Sequence record: SRR31156797_8627
DNA: 49,071 nt
Reading direction: 5' to 3' (one strand)
Position numbers and translations under genes: made by a program. A model generated the notes under the pieces. The model made no database searches. It was not told the origin of the DNA and saw only the letters and a list, made by a program, of their open reading frames with translations. Shown here piece after piece: positions 7,621 to 15,303 of this stretch. Each line of letters opens with the position of its first letter. Within the stretch, counting starts at the first letter, position 1.

Positions 7621-10611
7621 TTATTCCGCAATACACTCACGCAACAGGCAATACTCTTCACTTCCCTTAGCCGGAAGGATCACTCCCTGTGAACTGCGGC
7701 CATCAACTTTGAGTATTACCGGAGCAGGCAACCGCAAGTGGCTTATAAATTCGCCCTTTTCAATTGTAGGCTGGTTTTGGAACCAGTCCCAATTCATGAA
7801 ATCCCCGGGTTTATCCAATACCATCAGATAATTAATACCAAGCGTAGTAATGTTATGGAAGAAATGCGATCCCTGCGAAGGTTCGACTTTGAGTTCTTCA
7901 CAAGAAGTTTCAATGATTGCAGAAACATTTGAAATGTCAGGCCATTCAACCGGAATACCCAGCCAATGATCCGCAGACCCCCAGCGTCCGGGTCCGGCCA
8001 GCAGGTATTTACGATCCTGCTTGATAAGACGGCTGTTTATGGCGGAAATTTCCATTGCGATCTGTCTGGTTTTGGATACATCAAAAGAGTCGGGCCGTAC
8101 AATAAGAAGATCAACAATATCATCCTTTTCAGCATTACCTAAGGCATGACTGGAAACACAAACAGCATCCTTAAGTTCCTGATCGGAAATATCAATACGG
8201 TTAAGGTCAGCCCGTGCACTCATAGGCCGAAGCTGCAAAAGGTTGAATTCAGGTTTACGTCCATCTTCAAATATATTGATGCAGAACTCCATCTCCACCG
8301 GACCGCCCATACCGTTCTCAGCCAACTTAAGCACATCGGTTAACACTCCCGGAAGCGGAAGAAGCTTATGCTTCAAAACCGGGGCAAAGAGAACAACCTT
8401 AGGACCGGGAATAGCTGCGGTATCTCTAATTCTACCCTCTTCCGCCAGATAGGTGGAAGCCAGTCTACGCACCGGGACTGAATCCTCAAAATCAGCTATA
8501 TCCAGCTTCTCAAGATTAGCATCTCCATGAATATCGTAAACCTCGCCGTTGCCCATGCGCAGTCCGTAAAAGGAAGTCTGGGCATTTTTAAGTGAATCCT
8601 GCAAAGTCGGACATTGAGGCAGTATCTTTGGATACTTGGGCGAAAAACGTATACATTGCTCACCATCTACAACAGATTTACCTATACCGAGAGCAATAGT
8701 CGCCACCCCGTGCTCCGGCTTCATCTTGCCAAAGGGGTAATAGTTGTAAGACTGTCCCACCCCGGAGATAGCAGGAAAGTAGTAATCCCCATACTGCTGT
8801 CCGGCCACTTCCTGAATGATGACCGCCATCTTTTCCTCATCCGTGCGCTGATTCACCCGCTGGGAAAAAGACTTCGGAGCCTTATAATATGTAGAAGCCC
8901 AGACCAGCTTGATAGCATCAACAAGCTGCTTCAAACGCTGCTCAATATCCGAATGGTCATTAGGAATCATGTAAGTCTGATACAAACCTGCGTAAGCCTG
9001 ATACTGGGCATCCTCCAACAGACTGGAGGAACGGATGGAGAGCGGATATTTAACTTCCTTCAAATATGCCCAGAGCTGGGCCTCAATCCAGCCGGGAAAG
9101 AAAGCCTCACTGAAAATCTCAGCCACCTTTTCATCTTCAAGATCCGTGGTGGCGAGATAAGAAAGATCATTCATCTCCATAAAATCATCAAAACCGGAAG
9201 TACCAATGGTCAGTGTCCGCGGTGCGGTGATGACCACATCCTTATACTTATCGCGCAGCCATGAGTTGCGAGCCAGCATTGAACAAATGAAAGCCATGCC
9301 ACGCGCCTTCCCGCCCAGCGATCCGGCACCTATCTTCAAAAAATCTGTATCCGGGTCAAAATCTTTAGGATTAAAGGAAACAATAACCCCCTGCTGGCGC
9401 TGCAAACGCCTCTCCCTAATCAGGGTAAGCATATGTTCGCGATGGGTTTCCACATCTGGAAAATCTTTCTCGCGCAACGGTCTGATTTTATTTGCAAGGG
9501 CTATTTCCGTACGAGCATAAAACCAGCGGGAGAAATCATTAAGCTGGCAATGCTGCATAAAAATATCTTTCGGAATCTTGCGAAGAGTTTTCTCCAGTGA
9601 ATAGAGGCTGGAAGCTCTTGCCACCTCATTATCTTCGAGATCGCGAAAGATGAAATCTCCGAATCCCAGGTGATCCATCACAAACTTACGGACCTCGGAC
9701 ATCAAGTCCGGTGAATTCTTATCCACAAAGCAAGCCGGAACAGCCTCAGCGCGCTCTTTATTTTCCCGCTCATTGCTGGTTAAGAGCAGAGGAATGTCAT
9801 CACGACGTTCTTTAATACTCTTCAGTAATTCAATGCCTGAATTACCGTCCAGAATCCCCATGCGCGGAAATCTAACATCGGAAATTACGCCCAGAATATA
9901 CGGCTCATACTTCTCAAAAACGACCATGGCCTCTTCGTAAGTGCGGGCGGTCAGAATCTTGGGTCTGGCCCTCATGGTCAGCAAACGGTGTTCGGAGTTC
10001 AGTCCTTCCTCAAGTACTGCCTGTGTCTGGCGAACCAGTTCCTTATAAAGAATAGGTAAAAACGAAGCCAGATAGCGCGGAGAATCTTCCACCACAATGA
10101 TAACCCTGATCCCGACCTCAGAAGTATCATGCTCAACATTAAGCAAGTCCTCGAGGTTTTTGACCATGGCTACCAGCAATTCAGCATCGCCGGACCAGAC
10201 AAACTGGCGGTCCGTGCCGTCACAGAAGACCTCATCGCTAACTGCAAGTTGTTTATGGGCCAACATTGCCACCGGAATACCCGGGATTTTATCCTTGATG
10301 CGCCGCCCCATATCACAGCAATCCATATTGGTCAGGTGGGGCATGATGATAACAAGGTCGAAAAAGCGAACATCAAGTAACTCTAAGGCTTCATCAATAT
10401 TAGAAACCCATGTCAGACGCGGAGGGCGGCTCAAATTCAGGCCACGGTATTCACTGACAATACGTTCGGAAATGCGGCTGTCTTCTTCCATGACCCATGC
10501 ATCATACGGGCTGGAAATAAGCAAAATATCCCGGACCTTGACCTGCATCAGGTCATGGTAAAGGCTGAACTTGCGGCTCTGCCCACCCAAAAATCTCATT
10601 TTGTCTTCCAT
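7621..10611 (-). CDS. Receiver-domain + PEP-synthase/PPDK N-terminal (ATP-grasp) protein, gdhA-associated
   Basis: Receiver-like VIIVVEDS...VISDVRFP; PPDK_N motifs GSLGGKARG, RSSSLLED, AGLY, MAVIIQE, EMEF, LQLRP; no PEP/pyruvate TIM-barrel. Confidence 0.85.
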   Translation of the reverse strand: MEDKMRFLGGQSRKFSLYHDLMQVKVRDILLISSPYDAWVMEEDSRISERIVSEYRGLNLSRPPRLTWVSNIDEALELLDVRFFDLVIIMPHLTNMDCCDMGRRIKDKIPGIPVAMLAHKQLAVSDEVFCDGTDRQFVWSGDAELLVAMVKNLEDLLNVEHDTSEVGIRVIIVVEDSPRYLASFLPILYKELVRQTQAVLEEGLNSEHRLLTMRARPKILTARTYEEAMVVFEKYEPYILGVISDVRFPRMGILDGNSGIELLKSIKERRDDIPLLLTSNERENKERAEAVPACFVDKNSPDLMSEVRKFVMDHLGFGDFIFRDLEDNEVARASSLYSLEKTLRKIPKDIFMQHCQLNDFSRWFYARTEIALANKIRPLREKDFPDVETHREHMLTLIRERRLQRQQGVIVSFNPKDFDPDTDFLKIGAGSLGGKARGMAFICSMLARNSWLRDKYKDVVITAPRTLTIGTSGFDDFMEMNDLSYLATTDLEDEKVAEIFSEAFFPGWIEAQLWAYLKEVKYPLSIRSSSLLEDAQYQAYAGLYQTYMIPNDHSDIEQRLKQLVDAIKLVWASTYYKAPKSFSQRVNQRTDEEKMAVIIQEVAGQQYGDYYFPAISGVGQSYNYYPFGKMKPEHGVATIALGIGKSVVDGEQCIRFSPKYPKILPQCPTLQDSLKNAQTSFYGLRMGNGEVYDIHGDANLEKLDIADFEDSVPVRRLASTYLAEEGRIRDTAAIPGPKVVLFAPVLKHKLLPLPGVLTDVLKLAENGMGGPVEMEFCINIFEDGRKPEFNLLQLRPMSARADLNRIDISDQELKDAVCVSSHALGNAEKDDIVDLLIVRPDSFDVSKTRQIAMEISAINSRLIKQDRKYLLAGPGRWGSADHWLGIPVEWPDISNVSAIIETSCEELKVEPSQGSHFFHNITTLGINYLMVLDKPGDFMNWDWFQNQPTIEKGEFISHLRLPAPVILKVDGRSSQGVILPAKGSEEYCLLRECIAE

Positions 10612-10640
10612 ACGATGCCCCGCAACAACTAAATAAATTC

Positions 10641-10675
10641 AAAAAAAAGCGGACAGCGAAATCATCGCAGTCCGC
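10641..10675 (-). terminator. Terminator after gdhA
   Basis: gcggac-agcga/tcgc-agtccgc stem preceded by A8 on the plus strand. Confidence 0.7.
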
Positions 10676-10720
10676 CTTCTTGGTCAGATTCGTTATATTA
10701 CAATATAATATGAAGCTGTT

Positions 10721-12106
<1,386 letters not shown>

Positions 12107-12269
12107 TTAACATCCAAATAAATTTTCAATTCCTTTATTCCACCACTAACCGACTAAGTCCACACATCTTTTTAAAAAATCACAAGAAAAGACCATCTTT
12201 TTTTTGCTAATTTTGTGTTTTTTGATCTATGAATCAAAGCGATTAGAACCCAATTGTAACACAAACAGA

Positions 12270-12299
12270 TTGACAATGAGTAAATACTTACTGTAGAAA
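12270..12299 (+). promoter_or_regulatory. Putative sigma-70 promoter for leader/symporter operon
   Basis: TTGACA (12270-12275), 18 nt spacer, TAGAAA (12294-12299); places +1 at or near the leader ATG. Confidence 0.5.
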
Positions 12300-12306
12300 T
12301 AAAGCC

Positions 12307-12390
12307 ATGAACACCAACAAAGCTCTATTTTTCTTTTTTAACTTTTTTAGCTTTACCAGCCCTGTGGTCTGGAGGTGTTCACTCGCGTAA
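12307..12390 (+). CDS. Phe-rich attenuator leader peptide MNTNKALFFFFNFFSFTSPVVWRCSLA (27 aa)
   Basis: Read directly: 7 Phe codons within 9 codons (12328-12354), followed by antiterminator and terminator hairpins. Confidence 0.8.
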   Translation: MNTNKALFFFFNFFSFTSPVVWRCSLA

Positions 12391-12450
12391 GCGAAGTTGA
12401 AAGAGTTTTCTCCCAGGCCGCAGGCAACAAGCCCGCGGCCTTTTTTATTT
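12361..12450 (+). promoter_or_regulatory. Transcription attenuator (antiterminator + intrinsic terminator)
   Basis: Terminator aggccgcaggc-aacaa-gcccgcggcct-TTTTT (12415-12446); 12361-12372 cctgtggtctgg can pair (12 bp incl. 2 G-U) with 12413-12424 ccaggccgcagg, mutually exclusive with the terminator. Confidence 0.8.
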
Positions 12451-12558
12451 CCTGCCCCGGGTTTCCACAAACCGCCTGCTTCTCCAAAAGACTCTCTCAT
12501 TTCAACTAAACACTACATTTTTACAAATTTAACCAATTTTGAAATCTGGAGGCTTCAA

Positions 12559-12720
12559 ATGATGTTAGGACTTGGAAGCGTAGAGATTGCGGCAGTCTTC
12601 TGGCTCTGTATTCTCTCCTCGCTCGGATGTGTGGTTTATGGAATCCTGAACTGGAATAACAGGGGCAAACCCGATGCCACCGCGCTGAATGTAGACGTTA
12701 AAGGAAAAGGGGATAAGTAA
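12559..12720 (+). CDS. Small single-TM symporter accessory protein (53 aa)
   Basis: GGAGG SD at 12548-12552; MMLGLGSVEIAAVFWLCILSSLGCVVYGILNWN; stop overlaps symporter start (TAATG). Confidence 0.8.
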   Translation: MMLGLGSVEIAAVFWLCILSSLGCVVYGILNWNNRGKPDATALNVDVKGKGDK

Positions 12721-14318
12721 TGGTTACCAAGATCGTCATTACCTGCATCTATCTTTCCGTAATTTTCTACCTCGGCTTTAAAGGCTGGCAATCCACTAAA
12801 AAATCCACCGACTATATGCTCGCCGGACGACAGATGAACCCTTTCATCATGGCTATGTCCTATGGCGCAACATTTGTTTCCACTTCCGCCATCATCGGCT
12901 TTGGCGGGGCTGCAGGCCTGTTCGGATTTCCCCTGCTCTGGTTGACCCTTGCCACTATTGTGGTCGGTGTACTCATTGCCATGGTATTTTTCGGTAAACG
13001 CACCAGACGTATGGGACTGGCTCTCGAAAGCCACACCTTCCCGGAACTGCTGGGTCGCCGATATGATTCCAAATTCATTCAGGGCTTCGCAGGCGGGATT
13101 ATCTTCCTCTTTATCCCGGTCTACGCTGCGGCAGTACTGATCGGTATATCGCGTATGATGGAAATATCCTTCGGTATCCCCTACGACACCGCACTGATCT
13201 TAATCAGCTTCATTCTTGCGGGGTATGTAATTTCCGGCGGCATGAAAGCGGTCATGTACACTGATGCTTTTCAGGGGCTGATCATGGCCATCATGATGAT
13301 CATCCTCATTGTCTCCACATATTCCATGCTTGGAGGCGTAACTGAAGCGCATCAGGCCCTGACCGATATGGTCAACCTCATGCCCGCCAAGCTCCAGAAA
13401 GGAGGCATGATAGGCTGGACTCAGGGCGCAGAATTCGGAACCCCGCTCTGGCTGGTAATTTACACCACCATTGTTTACGGCGTGGGAATCGGAGTTCTGG
13501 CTCAGCCGCAGCTGGCCGTGCGTTTCATGACTGTCCCATCCGACCGCGAACTTAACCGTGCGGTACTCTACGGCGGAATCTTTATCCCGCTCATGACCGG
13601 GGTTGCCTTCCTGACCGGAGCACTTTCCAACGCTGTCTTCTACAAAGCTGTCGGTAAAATATCCATTGCCGTTGCTGGCGGAAACATGGACAAGATCATT
13701 CCAATGTATATTGAACAGATGATGCCGTCATGGTTCTCCGCCCTGTTCCTGCTGGCAATGCTTGCTGCCGGGATGTCTACCCTGTCCTCCCAGTATCACG
13801 TAGGCGGAACCGCGCTTGGCCGTGATTTCTTTGAAAGATTCGTAAATGTTCCGGCGGAAAAATCCGTAAAAATCACCAAAATCGGTGTCGGTATCACCCT
13901 GTTGGCCGCCATTCTCTGGGCATGGATTCTGCCTCCGTCCATCATTGCCCGCGCTACCGCCTTCTTCTTCGGACTCTGCGCAGCATCCTTCCTGCCCATC
14001 TACCTACTGGGACTGTACTGGAAAGACATGACTAAAAAAGCGGCAAAGGTGTCTATGGTAGGCGGGTTCAGCGCCTCCATGTTCTGGCTGCTGTTCGTGC
14101 ACGCCAAGGAAGCCAAGGCCATCGGACTCTGCAAGGCCCTGACTGGAATGGATACTCTCGTATCCTCCGCAGCAAAAGGCTCCTGGGTCTGGCTGCTGCA
14201 ATGGGTTGACCCCAACGTGGTTGCCCTGCCAGTCTCAATGGCACTCGCCATCGGGGTAGCGATGATCACGCCGAAAATGAACAAAGAACATTTGAAGCTT
14301 TGCTGGGCTAATATGTAA
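12720..14318 (+). CDS. Sodium:solute symporter (SSS, PutP/PanF-like)
   Basis: DYMLAGR, SYGATFVSTSAIIGFGG, GGMKAVMYTD, QPQLAVRF, AAGMSTLSS; many TM helices. Confidence 0.93.
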   Translation: MVTKIVITCIYLSVIFYLGFKGWQSTKKSTDYMLAGRQMNPFIMAMSYGATFVSTSAIIGFGGAAGLFGFPLLWLTLATIVVGVLIAMVFFGKRTRRMGLALESHTFPELLGRRYDSKFIQGFAGGIIFLFIPVYAAAVLIGISRMMEISFGIPYDTALILISFILAGYVISGGMKAVMYTDAFQGLIMAIMMIILIVSTYSMLGGVTEAHQALTDMVNLMPAKLQKGGMIGWTQGAEFGTPLWLVIYTTIVYGVGIGVLAQPQLAVRFMTVPSDRELNRAVLYGGIFIPLMTGVAFLTGALSNAVFYKAVGKISIAVAGGNMDKIIPMYIEQMMPSWFSALFLLAMLAAGMSTLSSQYHVGGTALGRDFFERFVNVPAEKSVKITKIGVGITLLAAILWAWILPPSIIARATAFFFGLCAASFLPIYLLGLYWKDMTKKAAKVSMVGGFSASMFWLLFVHAKEAKAIGLCKALTGMDTLVSSAAKGSWVWLLQWVDPNVVALPVSMALAIGVAMITPKMNKEHLKLCWANM

Positions 14319-14321
14319 TCC

Positions 14322-14359
14322 AAAAGGGCTGGAACAAAAATGTTCCAGCCCTTCTTTTT
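14322..14359 (+). terminator. Terminator after symporter
   Basis: aagggctggaaca/tgttccagccctt stem followed by T-rich tail. Confidence 0.85.
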
Positions 14360-14424: not shown

Positions 14425-15303
14425 ATGTCTAAGACTAGACTGGCTATATTAATTTCAATTCTTTTACTCATGCTTTCGACACCCGGCTTTGCCGAGTCCA
14501 TGAGCATTCCTTTCAAAAATTCATCCCTTCATTACACTGACACAGGTAAGGGCAACGCCACCCTTGTGCTGATCCATGGCTGGTCCTGCGATACAAGTTT
14601 CTGGAAGCCCCAGATAGAAGCCCTATCCAGAGACATGCGCGTCATCGCCATTGATCTACCCGGACACGGGAAAAGCGGTCAGGTCAAGGAACCATATACA
14701 CAGAAACTGTTCGCCGAAGCTGTTGCAACAATCATGGACTCTACCGGGGTAAAATCCGCCACACTGTGCGGCCATAGCATGGGGGCATCTGTTATCCGCT
14801 GGGTTGCCCATCTATATCCGGAAAAGGTGAATAGCCTGATAATCGTTGACGGTGCCCTACTTCCTTATCCGAAAACAGAAACTGAGTTGGAATTCTGGCA
14901 CAAGGAGTTTGAGCAAGGTTTTCGCCAAGGGTTCATCGGCCCGGACTCGGAAGGATTTACACATGATTTCATTGATTCGCTGCACGGTAAGATGACGCCT
15001 GATGACCTGAAAATCCAAGTAAAACAGAAGATGATGGCTACACCTGAGAAAGTTCGCACCTCATCCATGACCAATTTTCTGGTCAAGGAAACTTGGAATC
15101 TGCCGCAACAGGAACTACCGACTATGGCAGTTTATGCCATGTCCAAAGACTTTCCGCCCGATATGGACGAGATGCTGGAATCCATGTTTAAAAGAGTCGA
15201 GTATACCCTCTTCTACGGCCCCGGCCATTTCCTGATGCTTGAACGACCGCAAGAGGTAAATTGCATGATTCGGGGATTTATAGAGCGACACGGGCTGCTT
15301 TAG
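14425..15303 (+). CDS. Secreted alpha/beta fold hydrolase
   Basis: Signal peptide, LIHGW, DLPGHG, GHSMG nucleophile elbow, GHF catalytic His; AGGAGG SD. Confidence 0.9.
   Translation: MSKTRLAILISILLLMLSTPGFAESMSIPFKNSSLHYTDTGKGNATLVLIHGWSCDTSFWKPQIEALSRDMRVIAIDLPGHGKSGQVKEPYTQKLFAEAVATIMDSTGVKSATLCGHSMGASVIRWVAHLYPEKVNSLIIVDGALLPYPKTETELEFWHKEFEQGFRQGFIGPDSEGFTHDFIDSLHGKMTPDDLKIQVKQKMMATPEKVRTSSMTNFLVKETWNLPQQELPTMAVYAMSKDFPPDMDEMLESMFKRVEYTLFYGPGHFLMLERPQEVNCMIRGFIERHGLL

Follow-up and report, generated by a model that had tools for sequence, protein, structure and literature searches.

The window analysed here, the whole stretch of 49,071 nucleotides (nt) from sequence record SRR31156797_8627, carries a two-gene transporter unit preceded by an intergenic region (12068–12558) in which a short open reading frame (ORF) rich in phenylalanine codons is followed by two mutually exclusive hairpins. 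The first gene of the unit (12559–12720, plus strand, as are the other elements of the unit and its leader) encodes a symporter small accessory protein of 53 amino acids (aa; NF045580, 50.9 bits, cut-off 35) and has a Shine-Dalgarno (SD) sequence, GGAGG, at 12548–12552. It directly precedes, and with its stop codon overlaps, the second gene (12720–14318), which encodes a solute:sodium symporter (SSS) of 532 aa (TIGR00813, 185.7 bits, cut-off 184; PF00474). A terminator-like hairpin at 14324–14353 closes the unit. As far as sequence can tell, the region ahead of it is very likely a ribosome-mediated attenuator that senses charged tRNA-Phe and governs the import of some aromatic cargo from which phenylalanine would be supplied.

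The leader ORF (12307–12390) encodes a peptide of 27 aa, MNTNKALFFFFNFFSFTSPVVWRCSLA, with seven phenylalanines within codons 8–16 (12328–12354; six TTT and one TTC). No ATG ORF with seven Phe in nine codons arose in 1000 dinucleotide shuffles of the intergenic region. Upstream stand a −35 hexamer TTGACA (12270–12275) and, after a spacer of 18 nt, a −10 element TAGAAA (12294–12299) with a non-consensus sixth base; the leader ATG follows 7 nt on. This predicted promoter, lacking T at position 6 of the −10 element, was not called by a consensus promoter scan.

Beyond the ORF lies an intrinsic terminator (12415–12446), composed of a hairpin at 12415–12441 and a U tract at 12441–12446. Hairpin and U6 together reach −20 kcal/mol (z −3.8; 0 of 200 shuffles), and the element was missed by a consensus terminator scanner. 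The 5′ arm of the terminator belongs to a strand (12413–12425) that doubles as the 3′ arm of an antiterminator, whose own 5′ arm is at 12361–12372. The resulting helix (12361–12372 with 12413–12424) has 12 bp including two G-U pairs and a stability of −20.4 kcal/mol, and it is the minimum free energy structure until the 3′ arm of the terminator exists. The original prediction, made from the window alone, had proposed the same ORF, terminator, alternative helix and promoter, and its positions for all four proved right.

Conservation of the leader and identity of its codons

The symporter is present in 60 of 301 genomes sampled from the family, 74 of 301 from the order and 37 of 401 from the phylum, these samples being overlapping; the closest copies, mostly from Maridesulfovibrio, are 91–97% identical. 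The main set comprised 107 loci with the window included (108 locus records minus L017, a truncated duplicate). A leader was scored as an ATG ORF of 10–50 codons 5′ of the accessory gene with at least four Phe or Tyr, and at least five Phe plus Tyr in ten codons. Such an ORF is found at 61 of the 107 loci, with a Phe majority in 53 and Tyr in 8, and the 55 distinct peptides accompany symporters that span 64–100% protein identity. A further 35 genome loci yielded 16 leaders (15 Phe, 1 mixed); 80 metagenome loci, 17 of them with less than 400 nt upstream, yielded seven (6 Phe, 1 Tyr), all resembling groups already found. On FastTree trees the leader-bearing copies that were included form one clade (Shimodaira–Hasegawa support 96), with the exception of L024. 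In the first tree this clade had 63 members, three of which (L018, L051, L052) have no leader. L051 and L052 each stand immediately downstream of a leader-bearing copy as the second of a tandem pair. Like the second copies L058 and L059 they lack both accessory gene and leader, and all four probably share those of the first copy.

Could the ORF be a chance product of A/T-rich intergenic sequence that happens to adjoin an ordinary terminator? The 46 of 107 loci without such a leader would be in keeping with this, as would the symporter homologs below about 64% identity, among which no convincing leader was found. Against chance stand the shuffling result, the persistence of the leader across the 64–100% identity range in so many distinct peptides and the covariation of both helices described below. 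Inspection of leader-free copies by eye showed, moreover, that in most of those inspected TTGAC immediately precedes the accessory gene and the pair of hairpins is absent. The probability that we would assign to chance is next to negligible.

Of the three frames, the one set by the ATG holds the most Phe codons in 52 of 53 leaders, at 7.4 on average as compared with 3.3 and 3.5 in the other two; the same is true of Tyr codons in all eight Tyr leaders. Seven genomes (G114, G148, G189, G220, G249, G275 and G287) carry tandem paralogs, one behind a Phe leader and one behind a Tyr leader, as exemplified by MNKLNTNFFFAFFGFRGIQACGSVECVRA and MNTINRHMNSYFYAYYGYRVSKTCGSVECA, respectively; the two transporter copies are adjacent and 84–87% identical, and both leaders are built on the same hairpins. 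In G003 two copies follow Phe leaders, and at the third, L024 (G003:C1:2368823-2369170), two Tyr attenuators lie in series before one accessory–symporter pair, with the promoter spacing only at the first.

These observations bear on the possibility that the U-rich tract acts as RNA or DNA, either by UTP-dependent pausing or slippage of the kind known from pyrimidine operons or as an A/T-rich promoter-proximal tract, with the Phe codons as a by-product. TTT does dominate the Phe leaders (278 TTT against 112 TTC), and the TTT:TTC ratio of the window leader is 6:1 against 9:25 in the symporter. The Phe enrichment, however, is frame-specific, nine Tyr leaders carry in-frame TAT/TAC instead of a U run on the same hairpin scaffold, and mixtures of Phe, Tyr and Trp codons precede an all-aromatic operon elsewhere (see below). 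Because the Phe-to-Tyr codon swap keeps the same hairpins, a U-tract mechanism becomes untenable, and we rate it as extremely improbable.

The start codon of the leader is invariant and fixed at the predicted transcription start. At 60 of 61 loci TTGAC precedes the leader ATG by 35–38 nt, as compared with 3 of 99 accessory-gene ATGs and 7 of 1987 window ATGs; the sole locus off this spacing is the second of the two leaders of L024, and 15 of 16 leaders in the second locus set keep it. TA occupies spacer 17–18, 6–9 nt before the ATG, in 59 of 60 leaders. SD-like pairing is present in one of 60 leaders as against 61 of 61 accessory genes. Since the TTGAC spacing is so widely kept and an SD is absent from 59 of 60 leaders, the leader, whose start site is predicted from the spacing, is probably translated leaderless, in support of what had been suggested for the window. 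The −10 elements of these promoters keep TA and have a sixth-position T in just 3 of 59 cases. The promoter spacer of the window (12274–12296) forms an inverted repeat with mismatches; in L003 the repeat has 9 bp of perfect match, and close relatives retain it in part. It could be a repressor site providing a second layer of control.

Covariation was counted in an alignment of 52 of the 60 distinct leaders, eight near-duplicates being omitted. The 10-pair core of the antiterminator is paired in 94.9% of cells (30–39% in slid controls), with both-side changes in 26 cells at five pairs; the 11-pair terminator is paired in 94.1% of cells, with 57 both-side-change cells. Neither count was matched in 500 shuffles; both include inherited changes and are not probabilities. 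A hairpin with a U tract was detected in 58 of 61 leaders, and the other three have the hairpin but failed the filter for the tail or were left unaligned. The duplex formed by the leader arm averages −21.1 kcal/mol against −12.3 kcal/mol for codon shuffles, and in each of the 61 leaders at most 5 of 100 codon shuffles are equally good. Phe runs and compensatory changes in orthologs were the check set beforehand for the prediction, and both were found.

Alternatively, the hairpins might answer a ligand or a protein, as in a riboswitch or with an antitermination factor, while the ORF is incidental. The conserved motif CCTG[CT]GG and its partner CCGCAGG do vary less than pairing alone would require, and the antiterminator forms in most leaders when they are folded without a ribosome (see below). 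Yet no Rfam riboswitch comes near its cut-off, the region between the arms differs in length and sequence from leader to leader, and the invariant start codon holds its place at the predicted transcription start. On balance, control by a ligand or protein seems highly unlikely.

Ribosome position and the proposed switch

Ribosome states were modelled by masking the ribosome footprint in static folding. All 61 leaders form the antiterminator when a ribosome is placed on the regulatory codons, and none of the 61 does when the ribosome covers the arm. In the model of the window, the antiterminator is obstructed in part or completely once the ribosome has reached codon 16, the last of the Phe run, for which reason codons 8–14 are the predicted stall sites and effective sensors. 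The earlier proposal that a stalled ribosome leaves 12361–12372 free holds in the model for codons 8–14, and in part or not at all for codon 16.

Several results weigh against attenuation by ribosome stalling. Of the 61 leaders, 39 also form the antiterminator when the ribosome has come to the stop codon and 54 when none is present, and the arm used in the 61-leader model was picked as the best-pairing match, which favours the antiterminator. Shared descent inflates the covariation counts, and most of the helix core does not vary. No dominant protector (1:2) hairpin was found in the fold models of the 61 leaders, and for the window equilibrium folding favours the full-length terminator whatever the ribosome state (P at least 0.96). 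Given that the complete terminator prevails in all states, the switch must be kinetic, and since no protector hairpin dominates, termination must depend on timing. Some attenuators need no protector hairpin. From the folding models we infer that termination would hinge on a ribosome that closely trails RNA polymerase during synthesis of the roughly 55 nt past the stop codon.

The switch that we propose has its anatomy in the sequence, while its dynamics are what we infer. Judging from the spacing, the transcript would begin with the leader ATG or close beside it, and ribosomes would load without a Shine-Dalgarno site. If Phe-tRNA is ample, the ribosome would pass the Phe codons and cover 12361–12372, allowing the terminator at 12415–12441 to form and transcription to halt at the U tract. 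If Phe-tRNA is scarce, the ribosome would stall on codons 8–14, and 12361–12372, left free, would capture 12413–12424 ahead of the emergence of the 3′ arm of the terminator. The accessory–symporter pair would then be transcribed and would import an aromatic compound that relieves the shortage. Three features of the attenuator class are present, namely an in-frame conserved codon run, a terminator before the first gene and a computed exclusive antiterminator. Conservation, frame-specific codons, covariation, the Phe-to-Tyr swap and promoter spacing all favour the Phe-sensing attenuator first proposed for this locus.

Related leaders and the cargo of the transporter

Genome-wide checks were made on the closest relatives (G001, 97% symporter identity), and the paaK and aro leaders described here are known from these relatives rather than from the organism of the window. 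A promoter–ATG–Phe pattern was run on five relatives, along with a separate hairpin pattern; a looser leader pattern, which in G001 did not outperform its reversed control, served for leads alone. Leaders of the same probably leaderless kind, with Phe, Tyr and Trp (F/Y/W) codons on the same hairpin scaffold precede aroA′-aroB′ (L127/L158 in G001, L136 and L348). L127/L158 is located at G001:C1:3446000-3460158 (minus strand), and the L127 leader reads MQTFNTLGTGLSYFFYFFYFWCTHACGRVEVCLYKK. From the ORF translations we take this G001 operon to continue through genes that we would name pheA, aroA, tyrA and trp. At L125 (G123:C1:2238091 onward) a second aroA′-type aldolase gene lies under a Phe-only leader, the main aroA′-aroB′ operon of that genome having an F/Y/W leader.

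Phe leaders, again probably leaderless, also precede paaK-like and ACT-like genes (L124/L161–L190 and L338) in G001 (paaK-like gene at 619 bits, cut-off 646), in G003 and at 12 of the 30 closest paaK loci. Thirteen of these loci passed the count; L173 was discounted for want of promoter spacing and terminator, and L183 is borderline. The terminator of the paaK-ACT leaders is a related one, and their stop codon mostly lies 5′ of the antiterminator arm. In G004 a leader of this type is found ahead of paaK-ACT but not ahead of the symporter copy, L018. No leader was found before canonical iorA in the three genomes examined. The match between leader codons and target operon supports amino-acid sensing, and together these leaders suggest that leaderless attenuation by amino acids may operate on the scale of a regulon in sulfate reducers.

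What could be the compound that the transporter carries? Phenylacetate can give rise to phenylalanine through activation by PaaK, carboxylation by IorAB and transamination, and a paaK CoA ligase that would be induced by Phe shortage suggests synthesis of this kind. No paper on Phe synthesis from phenylacetate via PaaK/IorAB was found in the literature searched. Distant homologs of the transporter stand beside paaK, ACT or iorAB genes in 6 of 80 metagenome loci (2-kb flanks), in the order paaK-accessory-SSS-paaK-ACT in L258, iorB-ACT-accessory-SSS in L237 and accessory-SSS-paaK in L221 and L222, which may not be independent; L269 and L240 complete the six, and L083 adds a paaK-accessory-SSS arrangement beyond them. 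By a rough gene-density estimate, the chance expectation for such linkages would be well under one. On the strength of the sequences, phenylacetate as cargo has about an even chance of being correct, and a cargo other than phenylacetate or phenylalanine is unlikely.

Several points weigh against an aryl acid. Within the flanks searched, no paaK or ior gene adjoins any leader-bearing copy, and the 35 second-set loci have no paaK/ACT/iorAB neighbours. No canonical IorA match was obtained in 10 of the 60 symporter genomes (hand-read as G027, G089, G114, G132, G148, G189, G220, G249, G275 and G287, which may be incomplete assemblies), including all seven tandem-pair genomes, and in three genomes without canonical IorA a leader precedes none of eight paaK-like loci. 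The symporter scores 48–62 bits on the ActP/MctC models (cut-offs 670–1099), as against 186 bits on PutP.

The same attenuator might instead serve an amino-acid cargo, the transporter being a Na+/phenylalanine importer and its Tyr-leader paralogs importing tyrosine. The best equivalog is indeed PutP, an amino-acid carrier, though at 186 bits against a cut-off of 515, and the tandem-pair clade keeps and duplicates the transporter despite leader-free paaK loci and no canonical IorA found. According to PMC10102598, a D. vulgaris strain, which may or may not have this transporter, can draw weakly on Phe for nitrogen, and no gene responsible was identified. The operon-like paaK/ACT/iorAB linkage at the six metagenome loci and L083 argues the other way, as does the Phe leader before paaK-ACT. 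A CoA ligase with a small membrane protein and an SSS is, besides, the layout of carboxylate uptake in the acs-yjcH-actP operon of E. coli, and a longer, below-cut-off IorA-like ORF in G027 and G220 might substitute for IorA. An importer of phenylalanine is somewhat short of an even bet. It had been predicted directly from the leader, from which it does not follow, the paaK-ACT Phe leader and the paaK/ACT/iorAB clusters pointing as strongly to phenylacetate. The IorA-like ORFs (L274 and L275, 832–833 aa) occur in both of the tested genomes without canonical IorA and in none of the three with it.

The protein itself says little about its cargo. Sequence, structure and ESM Atlas searches found no characterised close relative, only generic SSS relatives. 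Its best equivalog scores after PutP are on PanF (172 bits, cut-off 328), and no equivalog cut-off is reached, in agreement with its first description as an uncharacterised SSS transporter with an accessory protein. The AlphaFold model (pLDDT 85.5) has a generic SSS fold, which leaves phenylacetate and Phe undecided. Top Foldseek matches are SGLT2 and a sialic acid symporter at template-modelling scores of about 0.7–0.77, and solved relatives are 13–19% identical. Co-occurrence was dropped as support for the cargo, paaK (272 of 301 family genomes) and iorA (234 of 301) being too common. The genes around leader-bearing copies vary and give no substrate clue (Pfam on two selections of 87 and 63 ORFs, which included many shadow frames). 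In the window, 7621–12067 (minus strand) holds a divergent NADP-glutamate dehydrogenase gene (NF006929, above cut-off) and then a 996-aa ORF. An alpha/beta hydrolase gene with a signal-peptide-like N-terminus lies 3′ of the symporter terminator, at 14425–15303; it was not among the recurrent neighbours of the clustered relatives.

A lead on specificity comes from residue 297, which is Phe in the window symporter. Seven alignment columns distinguish Phe copies from the seven Tyr copies of the tandem pairs, and 297 is the only one common to the unrelated L024. In the enlarged set the residue is Phe in 67 of 67 Phe-leader copies and Tyr in 9 of 9 Tyr-leader copies. Of the mixed-leader copies L078 (relabelled from Phe to mixed after the column scan) has Tyr and L324 has Phe, and 12 of 57 leader-free copies have Tyr. 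Among independent pairs, leader and residue changed in the same direction in three, in opposite directions in none and one was unchanged (p 0.25). A rule that any Tyr-containing leader goes with Tyr297 was set aside as not clean, in view of L324 and this p value. By a weak alignment, residue 297 lies about four turns past the position of vSGLT K294 in the same helix. As a specificity marker it is a lead rather than a result.

Tentatively, these threads may be combined as follows. The NF045580–SSS pair might represent an undescribed subfamily of aryl-acid importers feeding PaaK/IorAB salvage to aromatic amino acids, drawn by sulfate reducers into a leaderless-attenuator regulon of transporter, paaK-ACT and aro-phe-tyr-trp genes in which the leader codons have been adapted to each target; its duplicates would be split between phenylacetate for Phe and 4-hydroxyphenylacetate for Tyr, with residue 297 (Phe or Tyr) marking specificity. 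This wider reading is doubtful as a whole, but if it is true, the codons of a leader could serve throughout the family to indicate the substrate. The attenuator also provides a testable substrate class for a transporter family that is uncharacterised and large (of 8000 clusters scored, 5156 reach E 1e-100 or better). NF045580 also has matches in Bacteroides thetaiotaomicron and Methanosarcina acetivorans. The tandem Phe/Tyr paralogs are a ready-made experiment on joint specificity change of sensor and transporter, and were the cargo phenylacetate, this would identify how aryl acids are taken up when they are cross-fed in anoxic sediments.

Comparison with known systems

Among transporters, ActP-YjcH, MctC-MctB and the phenylacetate permease of Pseudomonas putida likewise combine an SSS fold with a small membrane partner gene. 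The likeness extends to acyl-CoA ligase linkage, seen here in distant homologs. The accessory protein of the window, by contrast, belongs to a different family, NF045580, and the symporter scores far under the ActP/MctC cut-offs; if it carries aryl acids, the window transporter belongs to a separate subfamily. PutP (Na+/proline) and PanF (Na+/pantothenate) score best among equivalogs yet far below their cut-offs, and these names in databases are no evidence of substrate.

The literature searched, which covered titles and the beginnings of abstracts and did not extend to a D. vulgaris transcript survey, yielded neither a Phe or Tyr leader ahead of an SSS transporter nor one from Desulfovibrionales. 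The available parts of PMC2836559, PMC2965389, PMC10102598, PMC4045070 and PMC11304471 do not contain the same leaders; supplements, such as the predicted attenuators of PMC2965389, could list some. The same partial coverage returned no prior description of the RNA family, its transporter target or the Phe/Tyr swap, nor of tyrosine-sensing attenuators, which the Tyr-leader paralogs imply. Amino-acid attenuators of the actinobacterium Corynebacterium glutamicum comprise leader peptides for ilvB, trpE, leuA and aroF (F-Y-F), and ilvBNC leader formation without a ribosome binding site is also cited in the portion of PMC4046766 consulted; those targets are biosynthetic, and no transporter target appears there.

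The closest likeness is to the phenylalanine attenuators of enterobacteria, whose architecture the original prediction had invoked. The leader, the exclusive helices and the terminator bear this out, whereas membership of the pheL family does not stand: no Rfam family reaches its cut-off, and Phe_leader (RF01859) scores 25.6 bits (E 0.06) against a gathering score of 55. The pheL-pheA and pheM-pheST systems have the same kind of short ORF with an internal Phe run, and differ in that the target here is a transporter pair rather than pheA or pheST. In both, too, an alternative helix takes up the 5′ arm of an intrinsic terminator. For pheL-pheA of Gammaproteobacteria (RF01859), an excerpt of PMC3082878 mentions possible use of pheL before pheA in Bacteroides and in Desulfobacterium autotrophicum, and the latter case gives Phe leaders a precedent in this phylum. 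Unlike these systems, the device of the window is probably leaderless, has no dominant protector hairpin that we could find, and exists in Tyr and mixed versions. The mechanism is that of classical attenuation; what is new is its probably leaderless form, its transporter target and the exchange of Phe for Tyr codons.

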